Source: Squalus acanthias (Eukaryota). Taken from it: DNA of 64,000 nt. The notes beneath the pieces were generated by a model. The model worked only from the letters and a program-made list of their open reading frames with translations. It was not told the origin of the DNA and searched no databases. Positions within the stretch are counted from its first letter, which is position 1, and the number at the start of each line of letters is the position of its first letter. Location: contig CM059426.1 of NCBI GenBank assembly GCA_030390025.1, positions 126,046,001 through 126,110,000 on the forward strand. Reading direction: 5' to 3'. Shown in pieces: positions 3,942 through 62,425 of the stretch. Both the position numbers and the translations under genes were made by a program.

Positions 3942-4976
3942 AATGTGTTTAAAAGATCTAATTTGCCTATCATAGAGAAAAACAATAGTACCTTTGTGAA
4001 CTGGAGCACTGGGGGTTAGATGTGACTGTTGAGGTAACTTTTGGATAAGTGATGGTCTGGTTGGTCTGTTGAAAATCCAAATATCACTTTGTTTTTCCTT
4101 TTTTAAATAATTAAAAATCTATTTATTATTAAGATTTCTCCTTGAGGCATTCATGTAAGTTATATTTTTCCTCCAATATAAGAGATGGAATTTGGGTATA
4201 CCCACAGTTTTACATTACAAAGCCAATGCAACTACGTGTTTCCACATGTCAGGGTCAAGTTCAGTCTCAAGTTGTCAGCTTTTTGGGAGCTGTTGGACAG
4301 CTTTTCTAAGTTGGCATGCATGCTGCTGTAACATCATAAAATGTTTGCATTACAATGTGATTTATTTTTGTCTGGAATGCTGACATTTAATGCTGTTCAT
4401 TAAGGACCATTGCTGGGTTTTTTTCAATTCAGCAGTTTGCTTTCTTTGCCAGCATTTATAGTGCCTCCAGTTTTCTATGTTTGGCAGGCATGGAAATTTA
4501 GATGTTCCAAATGTTCAAAAAGAAAGCTGGTGCTTTTTAAATTTGGCCGAAAAAGACCCATTACTACTGATCCTGTTTTTGTGCCTGGATTGCAATGTAT
4601 GTGTGTGGTAATTTTTTGGAAAACATATAATGAGGTAACAATTCCACTCCTATGTGCTGGTGGTGCAGGTGCATTCCAGGCGCAGAAGGGACAGAAATTC
4701 GGGGAAAGGGGCCTTGCAGTGCAAACGCACTGCCACCGCACTGTCTGGGGCATTCTACCTGGACAGCGCTGGGGAAGCAGGAGGCTCACACTGCTGCATG
4801 GCACAAGCCTGATTACAACTCTGAAAAATATGCGAATAAGGGAATTGCCATCCAGGCCCAGCGTTCCATCTCGTTTGCGTTGGTAGTACACGTCATGGGG
4901 CAACCACCTTCAAAGCAGGTGTGCAGAAGTCTGCAGCAGCATACAGACAGTAGAAAGCACTTCTTCCTTTTTTTAA

Positions 4977-5209
4977 TGAGAAGTCGCACAACACCAGGTT
5001 ATAGTCCAACAGATTTATTTAATTTTACAAGCTTTCGGAGCAGTTCGCTCCTTCGTCAGGTAAGTTTAGCACTGCTAAACTTACCTGACGAAGGAGCGAA
5101 CTGCTCCGAAAGCTTGTAAAATTAAATAAATCTGTTGGACTATAATCTGGTGTTGTGCGACTTCTCATTTTTGTCCACCCCAGTCCAACGCCGGCATCTC
5201 CACATCATG
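4977..5209 (+). mobile_element. Fold-back Penelope-type pLTR insertion, family 1, copy 1
   Basis: Near-perfect 195-bp palindrome 4975-5169 plus a ~40-nt unpaired tail; 12-bp TSD TCCTTTTTTTAA at 4965-4976 and 5210-5221. Confidence 0.8.
5081..5119 (+). ncRNA. Minimal type I hammerhead ribozyme motif (mirror copy on the minus strand at 5025-5063)
   Basis: ttac-CTGACGA-a-GGAGC(gaact)GCTCC-GAAA-gctt-gtaa: stem I UUAC/GUAA, 5-bp stem II, palindromic AGCU stem III. Confidence 0.75.
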
Positions 5210-5697
5210 TCCTTTTTTTAAAGTTGTCTATGCAGTAAATTGGTAAGAGATTTTTTTTTGGGGGGGGGGGGGGCGCGAGGAGGTGGAGTGGTGGCCTTTT
5301 TTGCTTCCTTTTGTTGCATTTGTTAAAGTGAATTGTTTTGTTTTTTTGCATTGCACTTTAGTTTAGACTTTGTTTTACTTTTGCTGCCTTCACCACCTAC
5401 CAGTCGGTGGAGCTTCACTGTGATATTGAACAGCCCTTGCTGGTAGCATAGGAACTCCTTTAGAAATTCCTTTTGTCTTCAAGAAGCTAGACGACAGTGA
5501 GGATTCCTCAATGGATGCTCTGCCTGTACATGAGCTAGGTTGGTAAGACCCATCATTACCCCTGTAGCTGGATCCATGGAGCGCCTTAGGCATATCATTG
5601 GAGACGTGTCTTTGGCACCTGTATTTGCCCAGGGATGCCTTTTTGCAGACTGGGATTGTGTTCTCGAGGTGACATCTAGTTCTACCAGCAGAAAAGT

Positions 5698-8040: not shown

Positions 8041-9454
8041 TACTAGAGTCCAGTAGCTAATACAGCAGACATGTCCTGCTCTTCCTCTTTGTGCACTCAA
8101 AACATTAATGGCCCGGATTGCCATCCTTGTATATTGTAGGCAGGGAGCAGAAGGGGCCCATTTGTGCTGATTTGTGTCAAACTAACCATGATAAACTGCT
8201 GATGGTTGGCAAGTATGCACCAGTTATTCTGAGACACTTATAGCAGGTCTTCAAGACAGTTCTAGACTATATGGGGCTTGATCACTGAAAATAGTTGTTA
8301 GTTACCAATTTACTTGGGAAGAATTATAAACAGGCATATTTTATCAAATTGGTCTGGTCTCAGCTGTGTTTCTGGTACTGCTTGCATGATCTCACTGTCC
8401 TTTGAACCCTGTTTTAATATTGCATGGAAATATGTCAACATTACATGAATTTTGTACCATTAGTAACAAATGGTTTGTATTCATAAACATTGAAAGCAAA
8501 AAGGTGATGTAATCTTCTTAGGGATCAAAAGTAATTCATCTGCATTGTCTATTTTCTATTGGGGATAAAATAAATTATAAAATGTTGTGAACCTTCAGCG
8601 CAATTACTCATATAAGTGTTAATGACATCACAGTAAAACAAACAGCTTCTTGGAGACCAATTTATGGAAACAGCTAACTCATGGTATTTGTTACATTACA
8701 CAGACAGCAGACATTTATTGAGATTGGGGACATAAAAAGGCTGAAGTATGAAACCAGCAGAGATACCATATGACAGATGGAACAGGGATATCAACTTGAG
8801 TGGATGTAGTTCTTGTAATATCTAGCAATAAGGAGTAGCTAATTTAGTTACAAGCAACTCAGAAAGGTTCAATTTAGATTTGCTGAAACTGCATAGAAGA
8901 GATGAAACAGAAAAAAATCTGGAGGCTGAAAATCTGCAGCTCTTTCATGGCATTCCTGCTGTCAGTCTGGCATGAGTGCACGGGAATGGCTGGAAATTAG
9001 GCCTGGGACCCAGAAATGCTGGCTCTTGGCTTTCTGTGGAAACAATATTTCAGTGAGCGACTGGTCAATCTATGGAACAGACTCCCGAGGGAGACGGTGA
9101 AAGCAGTTCGTATTGATTCAGTCAAATGCAAATTAGATAGGATCTCTTTCAGAAAAGAACATTTTGGGCTGCATGAGTAATTTGAGACATCGCATGTGTA
9201 GTATGCTTGGGAGGAAAAAGGTGACTTTCGACCAATGGGGTAGATTGTAACTTTGTGTGATAGTGTAAAACAGGTGATAGCGAGTCAGCAGCCCATTTTA
9301 CATCTCTCCTGATGTTAATTTCCATTGAAATCAATGGAAATAAAAAGGCGAACTAGATGGACCTTGGTCTAGCAATTCCTATGTTCCTAGAGTAGACTCT
9401 GCTCGGAACGTAAGAATTGATAGACGAATGGAGCCTCTGCCTAATCCAAACATG

Positions 9455-9607
9455 ATGCGGAGATGCCGGTGTTGGACTGGGGTGGACAAAAGTGAGAAGT
9501 CGCACAACACCAGGTTATAGTCCAACAGTTTTATTTGAAATCACTGTTTCAAGTGATTTCAAATAAAACTGTTGGACTATAACCTGGTGTTGTGCGACTT
9601 CTCACTT
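9455..9607 (-). mobile_element. Fold-back Penelope-type pLTR insertion, family 1, copy 2 (truncated before the ribozyme)
   Basis: Palindrome 9489-9608 with the same tail as copy 1 in reverse; TAATCCAAACATG duplicated at 9442-9454 and 9608-9620. Confidence 0.8.
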
Positions 9608-10689
9608 TAATCCAAACATGGTTCCTCATGTTAGCAGGGGGGGGGGGAAGAGGAAGAAGGGTAGTGAAGGAGGGAGATCCCAGACCTGGAGTTTCCTCAT
9701 CCATGACCTGGTGGAACAGTGACAACTGGTATGCCGAGGGCAGACGTAATGGCCTGCCATAAAGCGGAAATGGGGCCCACCTGTGGAAAGGCCTGGGTTG
9801 TGGCCTGAAACCCCCAAAAATGAAAACATTTGGTCAATATTTTTGGCCCCTATATAAAAGGGGCTGATGGGCAGACTTCAAGCCTCTTTCTAGAGGAGGT
9901 TACTGCAGCAGATAATCACTGACACATTTTGCGGTTTTCCCCCTTTTGGAGGTGCCTGAGATGCACCCCTAGTGGCGCAAGGGCCCGCACTGATTATGTA
10001 AATAGGGTTACCCCCCCCTTGACCCTGCATATATTAGTAGCCGCCAACACCAGGGGTCACTGGCAGGTGCATACTGGCACATATACCGGGACGGATGTTC
10101 TGTGGATTTTTGGGGCCCCTATTGTCTTGATAAGCTACATTTATTTTCTAATGCACCAATTATTGTCCAGTCCACTTTAGGGCTGATCCATCTATACTTT
10201 AATTTAATTTTCCTTGTTTTCCACAGCCTCAAAAAATATACATTGCATAGCTAGTAAAAATACTCTATATTACAGGTAGCGTACATGGCAAGGTGTGGAA
10301 ATTTTGTGCATTTGCAGTATGTACAATATGTGTATACCCTCCCTCCCCACTGCCGGCCCCCATCACCACCGCCCCCACCTGAACTTGAGCTGCTCTTGTG
10401 TGTAAAGCAGTTGTTGGGCACATTAATATACAGGCCTTGTGTTAGCACTTTTTGTTAATGGAATTAACAAAAATTAATTGTTAAGCATTAATTAATGGAA
10501 TCTGTGCAGAATTACACAGGCTTCACTTCACACGCACATCACATGATTGATGCCCAACAAAAGATGATATTTGAGCAGCAGAGAAAGGAAATCTGAAATG
10601 TAGCAGAGAAGGAAACATTGTACAGCTATTGGTTAGTGCTAAAGAGCATGCAGCAGCATTGGTGCAGCAACAAATACTACTTTGGTCAA

Positions 10690-17445: not shown

Positions 17446-18112
17446 TTATGATGTAGCCTCACTTACAGAGATGACAGATTCTTCTTCCTCTTTTAATATT
17501 GATGTCCTTGGTTTTAATCGACTGAATAACCATGTCAGAATAGCCAGAGCAATTCGGACAATGATTCGTAAAAGAACAAATGCAAAAGGAACAATAATTT
17601 GCATCAAATGGAAAATTTCAGTGCTAAACTTACTTAAAACATATGTCAGACAGAACGTAACAAAGGCCACAGAAGGGTAAAGTGAAAGCTTGGCAAACAT
17701 AAATGCATGTTCTTTGCCCCCGTACCGAATATGACGATGCAGGGTTTCCTTTTCATGGTAAAGTGCTGCAGCCCATATTGCAAACTGAAAGAGACTTGCA
17801 AGAAAAATAATAACACAACTGATTTGAATGGCCTCAAGTTCATTACGTGACTTGGCGGCAAATTCGTGGGTGAGCCGAAAGGCCAATGGAAGTCCACCAA
17901 TGAAAGCCAGTGAGAGTGTGTTCAGGAGGCCCATTAGTCTTGTTGTCTTAGTGATGTAGAGGAAGAGTGAATGGTGAACAAACCAGAGAAGGCCAACAGT
18001 CACAAATGAACCAAAATAAGCCAGGAATTCTGGACCGTACTCACTAAGTGCTTCAATAAGTTTGCCATGGAACTTCTCTGTAACTTCTTTAGGTTCAGGG
18101 ACATTGTCCTCA
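17446..18112 (-). CDS. TMEM175: TMEM175 last coding exon (EDNVPEPKEV...SVSEATS*, 667 nt)
   Basis: tgttacag|T GAG GAC; split codon TG+T = Cys. Strong similarity to human FLAYFGSFATVGLLWFAHHSLF...HVLMFAKLALYP. All exons join in frame to 522 aa plus stop. Confidence 0.97.
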
Positions 18113-18525
18113 CTGTAACAAGAATATGCAAATAAAGTTATAAGAAAACTCAATAAAGCCATTAATTCACTTCATGACTAATTTTATACAACAATTGGCA
18201 TTTACCATAAAAACATCCCAAGCATCTCACAAACAAACATAACTAAGGTAAAACGATGCTGAGCCAGGGAAGGGAGAGATTAGAAAGATTGACAGAAAGT
18301 TTGGTCAACAAAATAGGTTTTGAGATGGTTTTTAAAGGTGGAGTGAGAAGTGGCAAGGTAGAGAAATGAGCTAGAGAGAGAGAAAGCTGCGGCAAGGAAA
18401 GCACAGAAGATTGGAGTTAGAGGAACAGAGTATTCGGGAGAGGATATAGGAGGACATTGAGGAATTTGTAAATGATGAGGTTTTAAATTAATGGATTGAG
18501 GATTAAGGAGCAAATGTAGCTTTGC

Positions 18526-18992: not shown

Positions 18993-20718
18993 ACTGACAA
19001 AGAAGGGAGAGATGAGTGAGAAGCAATGCATGACATGATATGGTTAGCAGCGTTGGAGAAGTTGGAATGTATAGAGGGTGGAGGATAAATCACATGGGTA
19101 TACAAGACAATGTAATTTTTAAAAGAGTTGTCCTACTGCATAATCACTATATTTTATTCTCAATAAATTATTACATCAAAGAGATACTTGTAAAGGGACG
19201 CATGCAAAGTCAACTGTGGAATACTGAAAGTATTCCAAGAGCAAGGAAGACTTGATTAACATATGACTGCCACAGTAACAATTATAAAGGTCTTCTTTAC
19301 TCAAATAAATTCTATAATAAGAGTACCCAAGTATTATCTATCTCTGTGTGTTTTAAGGCTTTATTGTATCAGAATTAAAGTTTTCTGAACTAAGATGCAT
19401 ATAAATAGTGATTAAAAAATTCATTAGAATGTTTAAAAACAAAACTATTAACATTGCACTCATATTAAAGCAATGTTTTGTTGTTTTTATGGAAAAGTCT
19501 GAAAATGTTTTTGCTTGTTTTACAAACAAAGGGGACTAAAGTGGATAGCCTCCGAAAACAGGCGTGGGGATTGCGATGCACGATTAACCCTTGCCCAGTG
19601 ATTGCAATGCAGGCAGCACGCAAGTTTTATGCTACCTGCTCATTTAAATGATCTGTGTCCAACGAGCGCTAACCACGCTGTTCATTGGCTGGATGCGTCA
19701 GCAGGAGGTCAATATCGTGAGAGGCTGGCACCAGTTAAAGCTAGCCTGCACTGCTTAAAGCTAGCCTGTACCTCTTAAAAGGGAGGTGCACTGTTGCTGG
19801 AGCAGGTGCTGGGAGTCATGATTCAAGAGATTCTGACCTGGGAAAAGAGTGAGGAATGGCAGAACAGGGGAGAGAGCGGGCTCCAAGATTTTTGGATGCT
19901 GCACTGGAGGTCTTGGTGGAGGAGGTGGAAAGGAGGAGAGAAATCCTGTATCCGCAGGGAGGAAGGAAGCCCTCCAGACACACAGTCAAAAGGCAGTGGG
20001 AGAAGATAACCATGGAGGTCAATGCCAGAGGTCAAGCCCCGAGGACCTGGATGCAGTGTCGCAAGAAGTTCAACAACCTCACGAGTGGTCAAGGTCAGTG
20101 AATGCATCTTCAAATGCCATATCCTCAGCCACTGCTCAAATCACCACAGCCCCTCCCCCCCGCCAATCACTCACCTACCAACAATCTCTATCAATCAGGC
20201 CTCATATCTAACATTCATATGCTTAACCTCACCTTCACACACTTAGTACTGCTGCAAGCCTCACACCCACATCTCATCTTGTACACACTGCCAGCTATTC
20301 AACCATGACAGCCACATCAGCCAAACAGATTGCACAACACTCACTGACACACTTCCCTCTCTCTTGCAGGACAAGATGGCGCACAACCAGATGGAGCAGA
20401 GGCTAACCGGAAGGGCATAGGCACGCCTTTATGTCCTAACTCCCATGGAGGAGATGGTGCTGGCCGTTATTGGAATGGCCATTGCTGAGATTGTGACCAG
20501 CGGCGGGACTGAAACCATCGACGATGACAGTATCCTCACACCTAATCCTCGTTTCCACATCCCACTTTCTCCTCATCCCACATTCTCTTCCGAGATGGTG
20601 TAAGCATGCCCTCTTACTTTCTCCCCCTTCCCGCACCACACCATACTCTTGTGCCTTTTTCCTTTCAGATACCCAAGAGGTGGAACTTGGCCAGGCAGTG
20701 GAGGAACACCAAGAAGAG

Positions 20719-22259
20719 GTTAGCCTAACATCTGTGGTAGGTAAAATTTTGGAGTCCATTATTAAGGAAACAGTAACAGGACATTTGGATAATCATAATT
20801 TAATAGGACAAAGTCAGCATGGTTTTACGAAGGGGAAGTCATGTTTGACAAATTTGCTGGAGTTCTTTGAGGAAGTAACATATAGAGTGGATAAAGGGGA
20901 ACCAGTGGACGTAGTGTATTTAGACTTCCAAAAGGCATTTGACAAGGTGCCACACAAAAGATTATTGCTTAAGGTAAAAAATCACGGGATTGGGGGTAAT
21001 ATTCTGGCATGGATAGAGGATTGGCTATCTAACAGAAAGCAAAGAGTTGGGATAAATGGTTCATTCTCAGACTGGCAATCAGTAACTAGTGGTGTTCCAC
21101 AGGGGTCAGTGCTGGGTCCCCAACTCTTCACAATCTATATTAACGATTTGGAGGAAGGGACCAAGTGTAACATATCAAAATTTGCAGATGATACAAAGAT
21201 GGGAGGGAAAGTAGTGAGTGAGGAGGACATAAGAAACCTGCAAGAGGACATGGACAGGCTAAGTAAGTGGGCAGAGATTTGGCAGATGGAATACAACACT
21301 GGAAAGTGTGAGGTGATGCACTTTGGCAGGAAAAATCCTAGAGCAATTTATTATCTTAATGGCAAGAAACTGGAGAGTACTGAAGTGCAAAGGGATCTGG
21401 GGGTCCTGGTGCACGAAACTCAAAAGGTTAGTATGCAGGTGCAGCAAGTGATTAAGAAGACAAATGGAATGTTGGCTTTCATTGCTAGGGGGATAGAATA
21501 TAAAAATAGGGCGGTATTGCTTCAGTTGTACAAGGTATTGGTGAGACCGCACCTGGAATACTGCATACAGTTTTGGTGTCCTTACTTAAGGAAAGACATC
21601 CTTGCTCTCGAGGCAGTGCAAAAAAGGTTCACTCGGTTAATCCCGGGGATGAGGGGGTGGTCATATGAGGAGAGGTTGGGTAGATTGGGACTCTACTCAT
21701 TGGAGTTCAGAAGAATGAGAGGCGATCTTATTGAAACATATAAGATTGTGAAGGGGTTGGATCGGGTGGATGCGGGGAGGATGTTCCCGATGACGGGTGA
21801 GACTAGAACTAGGGGACATAGTCTTAGAATAAGGGGCTGCTCTTTCAAAACTGAGATGAGGAGGAACTACTTCACTCAGAGGGTGGTAGGTCCATGGAAT
21901 ATGCTGCCACAAAAAGCTGTAGAAGCTACATCATTAAATAAATTTAAAACAGAAATAGACAGTTTCCTAGAAGTAAAGGGCATTAAGGGTTACGGGGAGC
22001 GGGCAGGAATTTGGACATGAGTCTAGGTTCGGATCGGTCATGGCCCTGTGGGTAGTGGAGCGGGCCCAGGGACCGTGTAGCCTGATTCTGCTCCTATTTC
22101 GTGTGTGCAATTCTGTTAGATGCAGGAGATGGTTCTGTGATAGATAGTAGATTGGCGGTTAGGATCAGATCAGCCATGATCTTATTGAATGGCGGAGCAG
22201 GCTCGAGGGGCCGATTGGCCTACTCCTGCTCCTATTTCTTATGTTCTTATGTTCTTATG
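20719..22259 (+). mobile_element. Relatively young 5'-truncated CR1 LINE with an uninterrupted RT frame
   Basis: Open frame from VSLTSVVGK through GVPQGSVLGP and KFADDTK to the stop at 22020; (ttcttatg)3 tail. Confidence 0.95.
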
Positions 22260-32842: not shown

Positions 32843-34160
32843 ATAGAAAATGCTGGAAATACTCAGCAGGTCAGGCAACATCTGCGGAGTGAGAAACAGA
32901 GTTAACGTTTCAGGTATTTGACCTTTCGTCAGAACTGAGGATATAAAAATATTTTACGGTCGAGGGCCCTGTCGACCACAGTGCAGGGGAATCCTTGGTT
33001 GAGGAAAAAGGAAGACATATCGAAACCACTGGTATGGAAGGTGGCATCGTCAGAACAGATGCGACGGAGAAACTGGGAGAATGGAATAGGGTCCTTACCA
33101 AAGCGGGGTGGGAGGAAGTGTAGTCAAGGTAGCTGTGGGAGTCAGTGGGCTTATAGTGGATGTTGGTCAATAGCCTATCCCCAGAAATGGAGACAGGGAA
33201 GTCGAGAAAGGGAAGAATTGGAGATGGACCAGGTGAAGGCGAGGGAAGGGTAGAAATTGGAAGCAAAGTTGATGAAATTTTTCAGTTCAGGGCGAGAGCA
33301 GGAATTGGATCTGATAACGTCATCAATGTACCGGAGAAAGAGGTGAGGGAGGGGACTCGAGTAGGACTGGAACAAAGAATGTTCCATATATCCTATGAAA
33401 AGGCAGGCATAGCTAGGACCCGTACGGTTTCCCATAGCAACACCTTTTTTATTTGGAGCATGCGAGTGGAGTCAAAGGAGAAGTTGTTCAATGTGAGAAC
33501 AAGTTCAGCCAGGTGGAGGAGGGTGTAGGTGAATGGGGACTGGTTGGGTCTCCGTTCAAGGAAGAAGTGGAGAGCCCTCTGGCCATCCTGGTGGGGATGG
33601 AGGTGTAGAGGGATTAGACGTCCATGGTGAAAAGGAGAAGGTTAGGGCCAGGAAATTGGAAACTGCTAACGTGGCGGAGGGTGTCGGAAAAAATCGAAGA
33701 TGTAGGTAGGAGGAGACTGGACAAGGGGAGAAAAAAAAGTCAAGATCGGAAGAAATCAGTTCCATGGGGCAAGAACAGACTGAAAAGATGGGTCTACCAG
33801 GGAAGTCCTGTTTATGGATTTTGGGAAGGAGGTAGAAGCAGGCTGTGCGAGGTTGGGATCTATGAGGTTGGAGGCTGTGGAAGGAAGATCTCCAGAGGAG
33901 ATGAGGTCAGTGATAGTCTTGGAAACAATGGCTTGATGTACAGTGATGGGCTCATGGTCCAGAGAGAGGTAGGAGGAGGTCTCAGAGAGTTGGCGTTCAG
34001 TCTCCGCAAAGTAGAGGGGTCCAGTTCTAACGAAAGGTCATCGACCTGAAACGTTAACTCTATTTCTCTCTCTGCAGATGCTACCTGACCTGCTGAGTAT
34101 TTCTAGCATTTTCTGTTTTTATTTCAGATTTCCAGCACCCTCAGTATTTTGCATTTGTAT
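32843..34160 (-). mobile_element. Penelope-like element: RT fragment between inverted pLTRs (family 2)
   Basis: GPSYACLFIGYMEHSLF...FLRYIDD and IHYKPTDSHSYLDYTSSHP (PLE-type RT); inverted terminal repeats at 32843-32937 and 34022-34160. Confidence 0.88.
32900..32936 (-). ncRNA. Minimal hammerhead motif in a family-2 pLTR
   Basis: agtt-CTGACGA-a-aggt(caaat)acct-GAAA-cgtt-aact. The opposite arm (34023-34059) has a mutated core, CTAACGA. Confidence 0.6.
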
Positions 34161-38726: not shown

Positions 38727-39837
38727 TCTTCTATTTTCCTCAACGGAGGGTTCCCCTCCACCGTGGTTCACAGGGCCCTCAACCGTATCCATTCTATTTT
38801 CCACACTTCTGCTCTCACCCCTTCCCCTCCATCCCAGAACCACGATAGGGTTCTCCTTGTCTTCGCCTCCACCCCACCAGCCTCCACATTCAACAGATCA
38901 TCCTCCGCCACCTTCAGTGTGGTCCCACTACCAAACACATCTTCCCCTTTCTGCATTATGAAGGGACCGTTCCCTCCGCGACAACCTGGCCCACTCCACT
39001 CATCACCCCCATCACCCACTCCCCTTCCCACGACACCTTCCTGTGCAAGCACATGAGATGCAACACCTGCCCTTTTACCTCCTTCTTTCTCACCGTCCAG
39101 GGCCCCAAACACTCTTTCCAGGTGAAACAGCGATTTATTTGTGCGTCTTTCAATTTAGTATACTGTATTCGCTGCTCATGATGCGGTCTCTTCTACACTG
39201 GGGAGACCAAACGCAGATTGGGTGACCGCTTTGCGGAACACCTCCGTTCAGTCCGCAAGCGTGACCCCGAGCTTCCAGTCGCTTGTCATTTTAATTCTCC
39301 GCCCCACCCCCACTCTGACCTCTGCCTCCTACACTGTTCCAACGAAGCTCAACGTAAACTTGAGGAACAGCACCTCATCTTTCTATTAGGCACTTTACAG
39401 CCTTCCGAACATAAAACTGAGTTCAACAATTTTAGATTATAACCTCTGCCCCCATTTTTTCGGACGCCAGCTGTTGCTGATGATTCTAATATTCCCATTT
39501 ACACCCCTTCTAGACCCATCTTTTGTTTCTTTACTTGTCCCATTACCATCTCCTTTTGCCTTGCGCCATCATCCCTTTTGTCATTTATTCTCTCCTGGCT
39601 TCCACCCCATCACAGACCTTCCCTATTGTTCTTTCCTCCCCTCCCCTTTCCCTGCCCCTGCACTTGCTTAAAACCTGTTGCACCTCTAACTTTTTCCAGT
39701 TCTGACGAAAGGTTATCAACCTGAAAAGTTAACACTGTTTTTCTCTTTCCGCGGATGCTGCCTGACCTGCTGAGTATTTCCAGCATTTTCTGTTTCTATT
39801 TCAGATATCCAGCATCCGCAGTATTTTGCTTTTGTAT
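38727..39837 (+). mobile_element. Penelope-like element 3' part: GIY-YIG endonuclease remnant plus pLTR
   Basis: NLVYCIRCS*CGLFYTGETKRRLGDRFAEHL...EEQHLIFLLGTLQP...EFNNF; pLTR with a hammerhead-like motif at 39698-39734. Confidence 0.9.
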
Positions 39838-40319: not shown

Positions 40320-43300
40320 GGGCCGGATCTTGCTGGAGCGGGGCATCTTGCGGCAGGTGTCATTAGTTAGACGTTTTTCTGTACCCTCCAGCTCGAAAGT
40401 TTTCTTGCGGCGTAACTTGCTGGAAGTGCGAGCTGATAACGAGGGCAACTGGGCATCGAGGACCTTAGTGAACAGCAGGACCAACAGTGTATTTTCTTAA
40501 CCAATGAGATTTAAAAACTGAGAAAAAACCAGAGGAACGACGGAGATGGGGGGAGAATTAGCCAAATCAGGTACAGAAAGAAATAAAGAGATGGAAAGAA
40601 AGATTGGATTAAGAGAGAGAGCAAAAAGAGACAGAAAAGTAAAAAAAATTTAAACATTTTTAATTCGACATTTTTAAAATCTCAAACAATAATTGACTAC
40701 ATGCAGGAATGTGATTGAACCATTTAAATTGTTCCTTTTTTAGTCCAGAGAGGTTGGTTACATTATTATCTTGAGCATGAGCACAGAGCTTGGAGACAGA
40801 GCTGGGTGAATGCAATCGGGGTGGATTGCAAGCAGAGTGGAAGAATTTGGTGAGAGAAGGAATTCGGCGGAGAGGAGGAAGGCAGTTGAGACGTCTAACT
40901 GAAAAGGACTCTAAGTTAATAGGCCAGAGAGCGGACCTGCGGGATAGCGAGAGGAGCAGCCGGAGATAAAGGTAGGACCAAAAGCCAAGAGCCCGGAGGA
41001 AACGCGAGTGTCAGGGAGCGAGGTAAAATAAAACCTAAGTGTCATCAGCACAAGGGAAGGAGCTGATTGGTGAATAGCTGGTGATTTTTTTTTAAGTCTT
41101 GAGTTTATTTCTGTTAAGTTAGTGAATAGTCTATTAAATAGAGGCATGGCAGGGCACCTCAGTCCTGTGGAATGCACATCTTGTGCCATGTGGGAACTCC
41201 AGGACGCTTCCAGTGTCCTGGACAAACACATGTGCAGGAAATGTCGTCAGCTGGAGGAGCTCAAGCTCCAGGTTTTGGAGCTTGAGGAGCAGCTGGTGTC
41301 ACTGCGGTGCATCCGCGAGGCCGAGAGCTATATGGATAGCACGTTTCAGGAGGTGGTCACTCCGTAGCATAAGAGTGAGCAGGCAGAGAGGGAATGGGCG
41401 ACCATCAGACAGACAAGGAGGACCAGGCAGGTAGTGCAGGAGTCCCCTGAGTGCATCGCGTTCTCCAACCAGTATTCGGTTCTGAGTATTGGTGAGGGCG
41501 ATGGTTCCTCTGGGGAGTACAGCCAGAGCCAAGTCCACGGCACCACGCGTGGCTCAGCTGTACATGGGGGTGGGGAGGAGGAAGATTAGGAAAGCAATAG
41601 TGACAGGCGATTCGAAGTTAGGGGAACAGACAGGCATTTCTGCGGCTGCAGACGTGATTCCAGGATGGTATGTTGCCTCCCTGGTGCCAGGATCAAGGAC
41701 ATCACTGAGCGGCTGCAGAACATTCTGAGGGGGAAGGGTGAACAGCCAGAGGTCATGGTCCATATCGGTATCAGCGACATAGGTAGAAAGAGGAATGAGG
41801 TCCTGCAAGCAGATTTTAGGGAGCTAGGAAAAAGATTAAAAAGCAGGGCCTCAAAAGTAGTAATCTCTGGATTACTCCTGGTGCCACGAGCAAGTGAGTA
41901 TAGAAATAGGAAGAGCAGATGAATGCGTGGCTGGAGAGATGGTGCAAGAGGGAAGGCTTTAGATTCCTGGGACATTGGGACTGGTTCTGGGGGAGGTGGG
42001 ACCTGTACAGGCCGGACGGGTTGCACCTCAACAGAGCTGGGACCAATGTCCTCGCTGGGGGGGGGTTTGCTAGTGCTGTTGGGGAGGTTTTAAACTAATT
42101 TGGCTGGGGGACGGGCACCAGGATGTAGCATTAGAAAGGAGAAACAAGGTGCACAAAGGATTGGGAGAGACAGATAGCACTAGAGTAAGAAATAGTACGG
42201 CATTAGGTGGGGTCAGACTAAGAGAGAATACAGTGCATGTGTGTAAATGCACGAAGTGGGGTAAATAAGGTTGGTGAACTGCAGGCACAAATAGCCACAT
42301 GGGAATATGATGTCGTGGCGATAACGGAGACCTGGCTCAAAAAAGGGCAGGATTGGGTACTAAATATTCCTGGATATAAGGTGTTCAGGAAAGATAGGGA
42401 AGGAGAGAGAGGAGGTGGGGGTGGCAGTATTAATTAAGGAAAATATTACAATGCTGGAGAGAGAGGATGTCCCGGCGGGTTCAAGGACAGAATCTATTTG
42501 GTTAGAGTTAAGAAACAATAGAGGTGCCATTACACTACTAGGTGTATTCTATAGGCCACCAACTAGTGGGAAGGATAAAGAGGAGCAAATTTGCAGGGAA
42601 ATTACAGAGCGGTCCAAGAACTATAGAGTAGTGATAATGGGGGACTTCAACTATCCTAATATAGACTGGGATAGTAATAGTGTAAAGGGCAGAGGGGGAA
42701 GAATTTCTGAAGTGTGTTCAACGAGGAAGGAGGCATTGCTGGATCTGGTTCTGGGGAATGAGCTTAGTCAAGTGGAGCAAGTGTCAGTTGGGGAAAATTT
42801 AGGGAACAATGATCATAGTATCATTGGGTTTAGATTAGCTATGGAAAAAGACAGGGAGCAATCTCGAGTAAAAATCCCTAATTGGAGGAAGGCCAATTTC
42901 AGTGGGTTGAGAATGAATCTGGCCCAGGTAAATTGGAATCAAAGATTGGCAGGCAAAATTGTAATCGAACAATGGGCTGCTTTTTTAAAGAGATGGTTCG
43001 GGTACAGTCGAGGTACATTCACATGAGAGGGAAAGGTAGGGCAACCAAAGTCAGAGCTCCCTGGATGACGAAAGAGATAGAGAGCAAGATGAAGCAGAAA
43101 AAGGGGGCGTATGACAGATTGAGAATACAAGTGAGAACCAGGCTGAATATAGAAAGTGCGGAGGGGAAGTGAAAAAGGAAATAAGAGGGGTAAAGAGAGA
43201 GTATGAGAATAGATGGGCAGCTAACATAAAAGAGAATCCAAAAGTCTTCTCTAGGCATATAAATAGTAAACTGGTAGTAAGAGGAGGGGTGGGGCCGATC

Positions 43301-48886: not shown

Positions 48887-50280
48887 TAAGAACATAAGAT
48901 AAGAAATAGGAGCAGGAATAGGCCACTTGGCCCCTCGAGCCTGCTCCGCCATTCAATAAGATCATGGCTGATCTAGGGCTCAAAGCCACTTCCCAGCCCG
49001 CTCCCCATAACCCTTCACTCCCTTATCTTGCAAAAATGTGTCTATCTCCACTTTAAATGTATTTAACGACCCAGCTGCCACAGCTCTCTGGGGCAGAGAA
49101 TTCCACAAATTTACGACCCTCTGAGAAGAAGTTGTTCCTCCTCATCTCAGTTCTAAAAGGGCGACCCTTTATTCTGAGACTGTGCCCCCGAGTTCTAGAT
49201 TTCCCCATGAGGGGAAACATCCTCTCTGCATCTACCCTGTCGAGCCCCCTCAGTATCTTACATGTTTCGATAAGATCACCTCTCATTCTTCTAAATTCCA
49301 ATGAGTATAGGCCCAGCCTGCTCAACCTTTCCTCATAAGTCAAACCCCTCATCTCTGGAATTAACCTAGTGAATCGTCTCTGAACTGCCTCCAATGCAAG
49401 TATATCCTTCCTTAAATAAGGAGACCAAAACTGTACGCAGTACTCAAGGTGTGGTCTCACCAATACCTTGTACAGTTGTAGCAGGACTTTCCTGCTTTTA
49501 TACTCCAACCCCCTTGAAATAAAGGCCAACATTCCATTTGCCTTTTTGATTACTTGCTGTACCTGCATGCTAACTTTTTGTGTTTCATGCACAAGGACCC
49601 CCAGGTCCCTCTGAACTGTAGCATTTTGTAATCTCGCTCCATTTAAATAATAGTTTGCTTTTTTATTTTTCCTGCCAAAGTGGATAACCTCGCACTTTCC
49701 CACATTATACTGCATCTGCCAAATGTTTGCCCACTCACCTAGCCTGTCTATATCCCTTTGCAGGTTCTTTGAGTCCTCTGCACAACTTGCTTTCCCACCC
49801 ATCTTTGTATCATCCGCAAACTTGGCTACATTACACTCGATCGCTTCATCCAAGTCATTAATGTAGATTGTAAATAGTTGGGGCCCCAGCACCGATCCTT
49901 GTGGCACCCCACTAGTTACCATTTGCCAACCAGAAAATGGCCCATTTATCCCGACTCTCTGCTTTCTGTTAGTTAGCCAATTCTCTATCCATGCTAATAT
50001 ATTACCCCCAACTCCGTGAGCTCTTATCTTATGCAGTAACCTTTTATGTGGCACCTTATCGAATGCCTTCTGGAAATCCAAATACACCACATCCACTGGC
50101 TCACCCTTTTCCACCCTGCTTGTTACATCCTCAAAGAACTCCAGCAAATTTGTTAAACATGATTTCCTTTTCCTAAAACCATGCTGACTCTGCTTGACTG
50201 CAGTATGTTTTTCTAAATGCCTGCTACTGCTTCCTTAATGAAGGACTCCAGCATTTTCCCAACGACAGATGTTAGGCTAA
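48887..50280 (-). mobile_element. CR1 LINE 3' portion
   Basis: ORF 49053-50147 with YLDFQKAFDKVPH, GVPQGSVLGP, KFADDTK; ttcttatg tail. Confidence 0.95.
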
Positions 50281-53022: not shown

Positions 53023-53335
53023 CTAAAGCAAAATACTGCAGATGCTGGAAATCTGAAATAAAAACAGAAAATGCTGGAAATACTCAGCAGGTCAGGCAGC
53101 ATCTGTAGAGAGAGAAACAGAGCTAACGTTTCAGGTCGATGACCCTTCGTCAGAACTGGAAAAAGCTGGAGATGGAACAGGTTTTTAAGCAAGTGCAGGG
53201 GCAGGGAAAGGGGGAGGGGAGGAAAGAACAAAAGGCAAGGTCTGTGATAGGATGGAAGGCAGGAGAGATTAAGAGACATTGAGAGATTAAGAGATGGTGC
53301 AAGGCAAAAGGAGATGGTAATGGGACAAGATTAAA
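53023..53335 (-). mobile_element. Solo Penelope-like pLTR (family 2)
   Basis: Reverse complement of about 39520-39837. Confidence 0.85.
53121..53157 (-). ncRNA. Minimal hammerhead motif, sense to TMEM175 intron 1
   Basis: agtt-CTGACGA-a-gggtc(atc)gacct-GAAA-cgtt-agct; G.U pairs preserve both stems. Confidence 0.65.
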
Positions 53336-55486: not shown

Positions 55487-55954
55487 AGCGACTGCTGCCA
55501 ACGAAGTTGAAGTAGTTGTGCATGCGCAGTCGAAGTGTTTTTTTGGTTGTTCGCTTTGCGAATCACGGGCTCTGGGGGAAAAAAAGCCAGGAACGGAGCA
55601 GGCTTTGTGAAAAAAAGCCGGGAACGGAGCGGGTCTTCGGGACTGTAGGGAAAAAAAGCCAGGAATGGAGCAGGCTCTGTGGGGAAAAAAAGCCGAGAAC
55701 GGAGCAGGTCTTCGGGACTGTAGGAAAAAAAGCCGGGAACGGAGCGGGTCTTCGGGACTGTAGGAAAAAGCCGGGAATGGAGTGGGTCTTCGGGACTGTA
55801 GAAATAAAAGCCGGTAATGGAGCAGGCTCTGTGAAAAAAAGCCGGGAACAGAGCAGGCTCTGTGGGGGAAAAAAAAGCAGTATCATCGATATCAGCTTCC
55901 AGAATAATGCATAGAACGCTTCTGCGCAGCCTCCTGTCGTTGGCAGCAGTCACT
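55487..55954. mobile_element. Inverted-repeat element with an internal minisatellite
   Basis: 18-bp inverted repeats AG(C/T)GACTGCTGCCAACGA at 55487-55504 and 55937-55954 enclose 8 tandem units. Confidence 0.65.
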
Positions 55955-57536: not shown

Positions 57537-58393
57537 GGGGGAAAAATTCGGTTGGATTGCACCTCCCGTTAGTGCCTTAAGAGGGCGCTAATGGGGCGCG
57601 ATGTTTGCACCGCTCACGAAATTAACTAGACATTTTGCGGTGGCGCTAAACACAACCGCCACGATATCCTGCGCCGGCCGATCGTGACGTCAGTCGAGAG
57701 TGCAACATCCCAGTAGCGCCCCGGACCGGATATTGAGTGGCGCCCCCTGTCTTACCGTCTGCCGTTAGCAACGACAGGTTGAGGGGAGCGTTTTGCAGTC
57801 TGGAAGGGACTGGGGGAGCGCTATTTAAAGGCGACCGCTTCCTGCCTTTTTTTGTCGGCGAAATTTTTGCACCACGCATTCTGAGAGGGGGACTGCAGGA
57901 GATATTCAAAGCTGTGTTGAGGAGTTTTGGGTACTGAGCAGCACTTTGCAGGTTCTTTCTGGTTTGATCTTCCTTGCATCGATTTAGAAGAGAAGATGGG
58001 GGCTGCAGTCTGAGCTCTTTCCCTGGGCCTCTCCATTGTTCTTTCCAGCAGAATTGATGTACAGGTCTCTGCAGGCTGAGATTCAAAGGCTGCAATGAGC
58101 AGGGTGTGGATGGAGAGCAAGATCGACCCTCACCTTTAAGAACTGGCCGGCGCCAGTGTGTCTGTGTTCCATTGCTGACTGACATCACGAGCTTCGCCAA
58201 CGCTCTGAGGTAGCGCCTCGCTCCTCGGCCTTTGCGCCTTAAAACAGGTGTAGCGCCTGATTTAGCGCTCAATCACCTCCAGGGGCGATAAAAGCCAAGT
58301 TTGCAGTCGGAGGCGATAATTAGCGCCAGGCGCTAAACTTTGCGCCCGGCCGATAATCGCGCCCCAAACGGGGCGATACCGAATTTCTCCCCC
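57537..58393. mobile_element. Harbinger-type MITE (CpG-rich)
   Basis: TIRs gggggaRaaattcggt; ATA TSD at 57534-57536 and 58394-58396. Confidence 0.87.
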
Positions 58394-59102
58394 ATACTGT
58401 TTAGCTGTTCTGATTCTGCATTTTTAATATAAAGTGTGACTATGAAAAAGACAGTTTTTATCTGTGCTGCTAAAAATTAATTTTTCAGAAACTAAACAGA
58501 CATTACATAAAATGCTTAATCAGGAACATAAACCTTGGGCAACTTCTCTCTTTCGAACATGGAGCAATGTAATCTTCCTGGCCTGTATAGTTGGATAAAT
58601 TAGTTGAGCCATTGATGATATCCAAAGGAATGTGCATAGATACACATGTTTTTATTATTAAATATATTGTGTTTTGAGGGGGAAAGATCATGATTTTAAT
58701 TTGTAAACTCAATTTTTAGCTTTATCGTGCAATATTCCTTGAAGATGGGAAAAGGCTTTCTTTTACAAAAAATATTTACTCTAATGGCAGGAATATGTGA
58801 ACACAGGAAAATTTGTGATTGTGAGGCAAGGGAAGTCATGCCATAACCAGATGATGATTAAAATAATCACTTGTTAATGTCTTACAAAGTTTGTTGATTT
58901 TTACTTCTGTTCTTCTGGGTGAATATATACATGTATAAAACAGAGATCTCTTATTAATCCAAATACATGGCCTTCCTCATCTGTGTCTAGCTTGCGATCT
59001 GCATTAAAAAAACATACTACCAGAATTGTAATGTTTTAAAATCTAATAAAGTGATCATCTTCCTACAGTAATACCTATACCAAAGCTGTCCTCTCCTTTT
59101 AT

Positions 59103-59313
59103 TGAGAGGTCGCACAACACCAGGTTATAGTCCAACAGTTTTATTTGAAATCACAAGCTTTCGGAGCTATCGATTGCTCCTTCCTCAGGTGAAGGAGCAA
59201 TCGATAGCTCCGAAAGCTTGTGATTTCAAATAAAACTGTTGGACTATAACCTGGTGTAGTGCGACCTCTCAATTTTGTCCACCCCAGTCCAACACCGGCA
59301 TCTCCGCATCATG
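59103..59313 (+). mobile_element. Fold-back Penelope-type pLTR insertion, family 1, copy 3
   Basis: Palindrome 59101-59273 plus tail; 12-bp TSD CTCTCCTTTTAT at 59091-59102 and 59314-59325. Confidence 0.82.
59151..59192 (-). ncRNA. Minimal hammerhead motif, sense to TMEM175 intron 1
   Basis: tcac-CTGAGGA-a-GGAGC(aatcgata)GCTCC-GAAA-gctt-gtga. Confidence 0.75.
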
Positions 59314-59566
59314 CTCTCCTTTTATAACAGTGTAATACCTATTAGGAATGTAAGTTGTGAAACACAATAAACTAGTTCTAGCATACAGAGTCAGCAGAGA
59401 CTACAACACATGATGATTCACATAGGAGGAGCTTTGCTGTGTTGCAAAGTATGAAATATGATTCTTGCCAACCCATTTCCCAAGAAGCTCACATTACTCC
59501 AGCTGACTTGTAATCAGGTCAGAGAGAAGTGGGATTGCCTGGACTGGAGGTAAATTCTTTAAATTA

Positions 59567-61533: not shown

Positions 61534-62343
61534 GGGGGTGATTTTGCCAATGGGGAGCTTTTGGAGGCGGGACTCCCACTTGTTGGGTTTCAGTCCCGCC
61601 TCCATCAACTTCTGGCCAACCCACGCTATTTTCCCTTGATTGACCTTGTTAAGACCGCCCAGTGGGCTTAGCAGGCCAATTAAGGGAAAGCCGGTTGCAG
61701 AGAACGTCAACGTATGACGTTTCATCTGTCAAAAATTTTTGACTGATGAATTGTCATCATTTGACAGCTCTGTGAAGCTGTCAAACAGTGACATTCTCTG
61801 TAGTTTGATGAGGTCGTGAATTCAAGACCTCATCAAACCTCTTTCTTTTGCAGAAATGAGATGGTTGTTGCATTGGAGAATGCAACGGCCATCTGTCATC
61901 TCTACCGCGGAGGTGCGAAACTCTCCGCATACCCACTGACTGAGCCTGCAGGAAGAAACAAAGGTAAGTGCACTTTTTCTAACACTTGCCACTTACCTCA
62001 GATACTCACCTCTCCACACTTGCACCCATCACTTACCTTCACAGCACACTTTTGCACCCCTCCGACCCCCGCAGACCCACTACTTGCGTCGGTGACCCTG
62101 GCAGGGTTCGGAGCCTTCGGGAAGCCCGCAGCACTTGTGTGGGCCTATTTTCTGCTTGTTAACTACCTGTTAACAGGCAGTTAATTGGCTTTAATCCCTT
62201 CCCGCCTCCAAGGAGACGGGACCCGGCGCGGGGCGGCTACCCGCCTCCTGGCAAGATGGCATGGAGGTGGGTTGGGAATCTGCCCCCAAACTCTGCCATT
62301 TTCCTGGCAGTCCCGCCTCCACAGGGCTGGCAAGATCGCGGCC
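61534..62343. mobile_element. Harbinger-type MITE (same family as 47834-48662)
   Basis: TIRs gggggtgattttgcca / rc ggccgcgatcttgcca; AAT/AAC TSD. Confidence 0.8.
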
Positions 62344-62388
62344 AACATTTCAGGTTGATGACCTTTCGTCAGAACAGAATCCTTTGTC

Positions 62389-62425
62389 AGTTCTGATGAA
62401 AGGTCATCGACCTGAAACGTTAACT
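62389..62425 (+). ncRNA. Minimal hammerhead motif (family 2, intact)
   Basis: agtt-CTGATGA-a-AGGTC(atc)GACCT-GAAA-cgtt-aact. Confidence 0.72.

Follow-up and report, generated by a model that had tools for sequence, protein, structure and literature searches.

Short head-to-head insertions bearing a predicted minimal hammerhead motif in Squalus acanthias: probable truncated copies of a Penelope-like retroelement

Three related insertions, here termed family 1, occur in the 64-kb window (that is, the whole stretch of 64,000 nucleotides of Squalus acanthias DNA that we analysed), and are very probably severely 5'-truncated pLTR insertions of an abundant Penelope-like retroelement, whose RNA would carry a minimal type I hammerhead and would be primed at two sites; the link to that class is drawn from the architecture of the insertions. 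All three copies, of which copy 2 lies on the opposite strand, are built in the same way: a target duplication is followed by an inverted arm, a short spacer, a direct arm, a tail of 38–40 nt, and the second target duplication, which repeat thus encloses both arms together with the tail. The set of features looked for as those of the Penelope type—an inverted 5'-truncated terminal copy, a one-sided tail of 30–40 bp, and a target duplication—was found in each of the three.

Copy 3 (59091-59325) is bounded by a left target-site duplication of 12 bp at most (59091..59102, + strand), whose last 2 bases also match the arm, and by its right counterpart (59314..59325, +). Between them lie the inverted tail-less arm (59101..59183, -), complementary to the direct arm in 82 of 83 bases; a 7-nt spacer (59184..59190, -) that extends the tail-less arm and has a microhomology of 2–3 nt next to it, which assignment was made with upstream letters read from the loose ends of public contigs; the direct arm (59191..59273, +), which begins only at G8, so that CUGA and the 5' strand of stem I are missing from it; and the 40-nt tail (59274..59313, +), present on one arm only. 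Copy 1 (4965..5221, +) has a duplication of at most 12 bp (4965-4976 / 5210-5221), arms at 4975-5071 and 5073-5169 that are complementary in 96 of 97 bases, a spacer of 1 nt, and a tail at 5170-5209, while copy 2 (9442..9620, -) has a duplication of 13 bp at most (9442-9454 / 9608-9620), arms at 9489-9545 and 9552-9608 with complementarity in 57 of 57 bases, a spacer of 6 nt, and a tail at 9451-9488. The paired arm ends were never more than 10 nt apart within a copy, the arm length ranging from 57 to 97 nt across the copies.

In copy-1 numbering, copies 1 and 3 have the start of the inverted arm at 5167-5169, where 2 bases also belong to the target duplication; copy 2 has it at 5170-5171. An earlier note on this DNA had stated that the three copies begin the inverted arm at the same point; the site is indeed the same within 1–4 nt, but the base is not identical, since copy 2 differs. 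The fixed priming site proposed in the same note was, for its part, supported by public contigs, which came from four of 24 runs (X1, X5, X6, and X7) and were aligned to the direct arm of copy 1. Among the loose 3' ends longer than 100 nt that were listed, 419 of the 424 contigs ended at 5167 or 5208/5209: 46 at 5167, which position appeared in X5 and X6 only among the ends listed (two of the four runs), and 373 at 5208-5209, in all four runs; the remaining ones fell at 5170 (one contig) and 5181 (four). This clustering points to two fixed 3' ends about 41 nt apart, namely the start of the inverted arm and the end of the tail, and the junctions match the two reverse-transcription start sites described for an anole element in the accessible text of PMC11167929. 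As a rough guide to abundance, and not as a copy number, in two runs the summed depth of family 1 exceeded the depth of the unique flank by a factor of about 100,000. The ratio of tail to body depth was tried as a gauge of the share of two-arm copies and was dropped, its values disagreeing between runs. We also observed that body and tail are predicted to pair in a 9-bp stem (5147-5155 with 5186-5194) that holds the internal start site in its loop and has a counterpart in copy 3 (59251-59257 with 59292-59298); variants at 5190 and at 5192, the latter a CpG, keep this stem as G-U pairs, and the folding z values are only -1.5 and -0.3. The stem may be the equivalent of the stem-loop described for the anole start sites.

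Within the 54 nt that all arms share, both arms of a copy agree at seven of nine variable columns. That the arms share changes, as had been claimed, therefore stands for those seven columns, but that those changes are specific to each copy does not for the most part: five of the seven are common to copies 2 and 3, and the copy-1 letters are the majority there in X1 and X5, so that those five are subfamily markers. Only 5162C and 5168A (copy-1 numbering) and the long loop II of copy 3 look rare, all being present in both arms and none being among the variants listed at 3% or more; which finding indicates one template, or one source locus, for the two arms of that copy. Had the inverted arm been generated after insertion, through a template switch in replication or gene conversion in the palindrome, the identity of the arms would say nothing about retrotransposition. 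Gene conversion could homogenise arms, and the two columns of the nine that differ between arms do denote some independent change; yet the target duplication surrounds arms and tail in every copy, and insertions at unrelated loci have a fixed start for the inverted arm, which circumstances make a later origin highly improbable.

If the arms are products of the insertion itself, the question becomes how many RNAs were copied, and from how many primers. A dimer of the protein might prime two RNAs, both derived from one source locus, with one priming at each end of the target, after which the cDNAs would be end-joined. According to the accessible text of PMC11167929, the anole element has a protein for which a dimer is predicted and which extends both strands, and the hammerhead likewise needs two copies; nevertheless, independent truncation should give unequal arms, whereas the arm ends lie within 10 nt of one another in all three copies, and the rare variants common to both arms of copy 3 also count against a pair of templates, so that we consider this arrangement improbable. 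We find it plausible, if just short of probable, that within the Penelope-like reading two primings took place on one RNA, with run-off at a common 5' end and end-joining. On the model of the anole element, the protein would cut both strands of an AT-rich target some 10–13 nt apart; one DNA end would prime reverse transcription at the end of the tail, and the other would do so at the internal site about 41 nt upstream, aided by a match of 1–4 nt between target and template. The same RNA would be copied from the two primers in succession, each copy running off at the shared 5' end, and the resulting cDNA ends would be joined head to head through 2–3 nt of microhomology or a short insert.

Alternatively, a single cDNA might snap back at a micro-palindrome, copy itself, and become joined, at the fixed internal site, to the opposite end of the target, or, in a variant of that scheme, a tail-less cDNA might fold and a short second priming occur at the end of the tail. 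Such a fold-back, which we rate as only a little less likely than the double priming, would be in keeping with arm ends at most 10 nt apart despite the differing arm lengths and with the junction of copy 3, which forms a 3-bp stem with a 7-nt loop; and self-priming has been proposed from junction palindromes in rotifer elements (PMC3846280, accessible text). The spacers argue in the other direction. In copy 1 the spacer apparently extends the tail arm, with 2 nt of microhomology, and if the template reads as three upstream X6 contigs suggest, a loop of 1 nt would be needed, which is apparently too short for a plain fold-back; in copy 2 the spacer matches neither strand of the expected template, its letters resembling a stretch of the arm a few bases off; and in copy 3 the spacer comes from the tail-less arm, so that a second priming would be needed anyway. 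The earlier assertion that both arms were made from one template accordingly survives as far as the rare variants of copy 3 and the close arm ends fit it, but three copies cannot separate double priming, the reading that we prefer, from cDNA fold-back.

The other distinctive feature of family 1 is the predicted ribozyme. Copy 3 contains a complete minimal type I hammerhead motif at 59151..59192 (-), with a predicted cut between 59155 and 59154: stem I has 4 bp (59192-59189 with 59154-59151, -); the core CUGAGGA (59188-59182, -) is followed by an extra A; and stem II has 5 bp (59180-59176 with 59167-59163, -), next to which come GAAA and the palindromic helix III, AAGCUU. Copy 1 carries the motif in its tail arm (5081..5119, +; predicted cut 5115/5116) and, in identical form, in its inverted arm (5025..5063, -). 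CUGANGA, GAAA, and UH are thus found in order in both arms of copy 1 and in one arm of copy 3, in which CUGAGGA and the 5' strand of stem I are restricted to the tail-less arm; the core is missing from copy 2 through truncation at the cleavage site, so that two of the three copies hold it. Helices I and II, the extra nucleotide before helix II, and G10.1-C11.1 are all present, and the nine pairs are intact in both copy 1 and copy 3. The centroid fold of the copy 3 motif gives stems I and II, the z value for folding of a single motif being -1.9 for copy 3 and -2.4 for copy 1. With the GC-U-U arrangement, which leaves no loop 3, helix III amounts to the palindrome AAGCUU, whose self-duplex has a calculated energy of -4.3 kcal/mol, and which would need a second copy of the motif in order to fold. 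As a separate observation, stem II of copy 3 together with its long loop (59163-59180) is a near-perfect 18-nt palindrome, and in the dimer fold two copies would pair through that palindrome and not through helix III.

A strict hammerhead descriptor, written after the motifs had been seen, gave five matches in the window against none in 300 dinucleotide-matched null sequences. Rfam returned no match in the window at gathering scores and, at E values up to 10, no hammerhead model among 22 and 17 matches; since the motif has no loop 3, this result counts against membership in the Rfam hammerhead families and not against the minimal type. Were the hammerhead match accidental, the repeat would be a MITE-like palindromic DNA transposon or a microRNA-like hairpin, and the only notable Rfam matches were in fact to microRNA hairpin models, all of them far below their gathering scores. 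We find that explanation scarcely credible, because an arm length that varies by copy and a one-sided tail are unlike fixed terminal inverted repeats, because a complete core occurs in two unrelated families with compensated stems, and because of the descriptor counts. An identity as microRNA from the Rfam matches was rejected, those matches reflecting the long hairpin only.

The second of those families is older and has six hammerhead cores in the window, at 32900-32936 (-), 34023-34059 (+), 39698-39734 (+), 53121-53157 (-), 62340-62376 (-), and 62389-62425 (+), with AACGUU as the helix III palindrome and A-U at 10.1-11.1. Stems I and III had not been required by the first scan for cores, and pairs between families were counted by position; on that basis the best copy of the second family (62389-62425) keeps ten of ten pairs, eight of which differ from those of copy 3 in both bases. 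When copies 1 and 3 were used to build a model, it recovered four of the six cores at E values of 0.004–0.036 and a fifth at 0.19, in a search that gave 16 matches up to an E value of 5. Among the six cores, three have broken pairs (5 of 60 cells) and one has a change in the core, as expected of dead copies. A copy of this family at 62344-62421 is likewise head to head, with arms of 32 bp and a spacer of 14 nt. The second family, which would share the same minimal type I fold, offers better support for that fold than does the contrast between copies 1 and 3; and, as judged from sequence, the hammerhead reading is right, being carried by the second family and the full core and not by the single compensatory pair.

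That compensatory pair was part of an earlier claim that covariation between the family-1 copies supports the hammerhead fold. Every change listed in that claim is present: in copy 3, as compared with copy 1, stem I passes from UUAC/GUAA to UCAC/GUGA through 5082 U>C and 5118 A>G, which make up one compensatory pair; N7 passes from C to G; and loop II passes from GAACU to the longer AAUCGAUA; while stem II, the core, and also helix III are unchanged. The strength given to those changes is another matter, in that only two copies hold the core and a single pair, itself a subfamily marker, represents one event. A covariation test on two rows has no power, and 253 of 500 shuffles matched the contrast between copies 1 and 3. 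When the 12 non-loop substitutions between copies 1 and 3 were placed at random over 124 columns, the probability of an intact core and pairs was 0.061, that of at least one compensatory pair 0.037, and that of both 0.004. Moreover, the changed C of copy 3 (59191) doubles as the first base of the other arm, inside the junction overlap, so that the window alone leaves the templating of that base undemonstrated.

The public contigs lend the changed C indirect support. In run X7, from another organism, 97% of the depth is G at 5118, and loose ends before 5083 put C at 5082 in 15 contigs of X7 and 12 of X5, which letters are not linked to 5118G on single molecules. The depth of 5118G matches that of 5123C, a position outside the hammerhead motif, in all four runs (49,693/50,102; 68,566/72,195; 4,819/5,421; and 13,005/12,828, respectively), from which agreement we take the compensatory pair to be a subfamily marker, inherited from one event. 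All five listed contig indels fall at 5098-5103, that is, in loop II and its edge, and none of the 14 listed substitutions falls in CUGANGA, GAAA, or stem II; the clean core is partly a mapping effect, since contigs with changes near the core get clipped. Two variants stand against the fold: U16.1>C, at 6% in X6, and 5117 U>C, which would break a pair of stem I and is seen at 8% in X6 and 9% in X7. Within 5072-5248, X6 shows T>C at 5114 (6%), T>C at 5117 (8%), and A>G at 5124 (3%), while the same three sites stay at or below 0.25% in X1 and X5, which are from the same organism; these changes hint weakly that hairpin transcripts undergo A-to-I editing, X6 being taken as RNA by guess and X7 also carrying 5117 T>C at 9%.

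As to what the ribozyme might do in these copies, the whole insertions of copies 1 and 3 fold as hairpins of 150–177 kcal/mol, and the pairing probabilities of the hammerhead stems, which are 0.27–1.0 when an arm is folded singly, drop to 0.0 for the insertion as a whole. The head-to-head arms place their motifs on opposite strands, so that one transcript contains no second motif with which to form the dimer. In these copies the hammerhead is, by these folding predictions, a passenger, whose motif the mirror-image arms would pair away in a read-through transcript; selection would have acted on the hammerhead in the source elements. We looked for a truncation hot spot at the cleavage site in the depth across 5108-5119 and found no clear step, the depth running from 1.92 to 1.98 million in X1 and from 1.17 to 1.26 million in X5; this comparison is biased to copy-1-like contigs, copy 2 being of the other type. 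The lack of a step is in line with the result for the anole element, for which the accessible text of PMC11167929 gives uncut RNA as the main template and contains no read evidence for hammerhead cleavage in vivo. Copy 2 is the single contrary hint: each of its arms ends (9545-9552) at most 1 nt from the predicted cleavage site. Should a single RNA be copied from both target ends, with run-off at a shared 5' end, some of those 5' ends might be made by the hammerhead, in which event copy 2 would be a genomic footprint of cleavage in vivo; we deem this unlikely. If arm ends were in excess at that site, this would be evidence for cutting by the ribozyme in vivo.

The surrounding window is repeat-rich DNA with reverse-transcriptase fragments. 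LINE-type fragments lie at 841-2831, 20497-22020, 49053-50234, and 42364-43026, with three reverse-transcriptase matches and one match to an AP-type endonuclease. In a search for an open reading frame of the Penelope RT-GIY-YIG type, none of the 11 frames scanned (of 25 in the window) matched GIY-YIG, and three matched reverse transcriptase. Pattern scans for further copies gave none in viral contigs and none in prokaryote genomes, and two matches in metagenomes were discarded as chance 20-base matches in unrelated sequence. Elsewhere in the window, 17449-18171 (-) matches Pfam TMEM175 (E 8.5e-14) and is probably an exon of a host gene; 55572-55888 is an irregular tandem of 31–78 nt units in which A-runs and GGAACGGAGC-like words abound; and GC-rich ends with repeated GGCGC/GCGCC words (57580-57690 and 58240-58390) flank an open frame (57646-58272) for which there was no Pfam match, the whole, just upstream of copy 3, looking like a non-autonomous DNA transposon.

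Regarding known systems, dimer-type minimal hammerheads have been described in the pLTRs of metazoan Penelope-like elements (Cervera and De la Pena, 2014; PMC4209133), with an extra nucleotide between 9 and 10.1, a G10.1-C11.1 pair, and a palindromic 15.2-16.2 segment; dimeric cleavage was reported by Lunse et al. (2017), as cited in the review PMC6765202. The family-1 motif has these minimal-hammerhead features given in the accessible text of PMC4209133, its helix II having 5 bp as against the 7–8 bp of the schistosome motifs; no cartilaginous-fish example appears in that text. The nearest mechanistic parallel is PAc, the Poseidon-type Penelope-like element of Anolis carolinensis, for which Frangieh et al. 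(2024; PMC11167929, accessible text) report in vitro that both target strands are cut and extended and that the tail lies between two reverse-transcription start sites. Family 1 resembles PAc in having two 3' start sites that bound the tail, an AT-rich target, and priming, as we read it, on both strands, as well as in the upstream hammerhead and in copies that extend through the uncut site; the distal start site lies 118–119 nt from hammerhead A9 in family 1, against 111–118 nt into the PAc open reading frame, which begins at about that point (as counted by eye). Unlike PAc, the family-1 copies have neither an open reading frame nor a start codon at the hammerhead, and their helix III palindrome is AAGCUU. 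The accessible text of the PAc study contains no explanation for head-to-head arms.

Such arms are, by contrast, familiar from other members of the class. Penelope-like elements bear an inverted 5'-truncated copy and a one-sided extension of 30–40 bp, and the Penelope families of Adineta vaga form head-to-head inverted pLTR units with a one-sided tail and a target-site duplication of 8–10 bp (PMC8557442 and PMC3846280, accessible texts). Family 1 shares with those units the duplication around the whole unit and the short palindrome at the junction, and departs from them in that the unit is only 157–233 nt long, has no open reading frame, and has duplications of up to 12–13 bp. Non-LTR retrozymes, according to the accessible text of a preprint (bioRxiv 10.64898/2026.07.22.740005), are short, non-coding, derived from Penelope-like elements, and provided with a type I hammerhead, and they occur in the one cartilaginous fish sampled there; those elements form head-to-tail tandems with a hammerhead in each unit, while the family-1 copies are head to head and variably truncated. 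We rejected an identity with non-LTR retrozymes, for which a head-to-tail tandem of at least two units, each holding a complete hammerhead, is called for, all three copies being head to head.

The literature that we searched, whose reach left out most subscription journals, yielded no paper on family 1. An inverted terminal repeat, a one-sided 40-nt tail, a duplication of 12–13 bp, and a dimer-type hammerhead are standard for Penelope-like elements, and two-site priming is also in print. The abundant short two-arm insertions are, through their spacers, arm ends, and start sites, material for telling fold-back from double priming, and PMC8557442 (accessible text) names this step as unresolved. 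Within the class so described, family 1 adds one more family.
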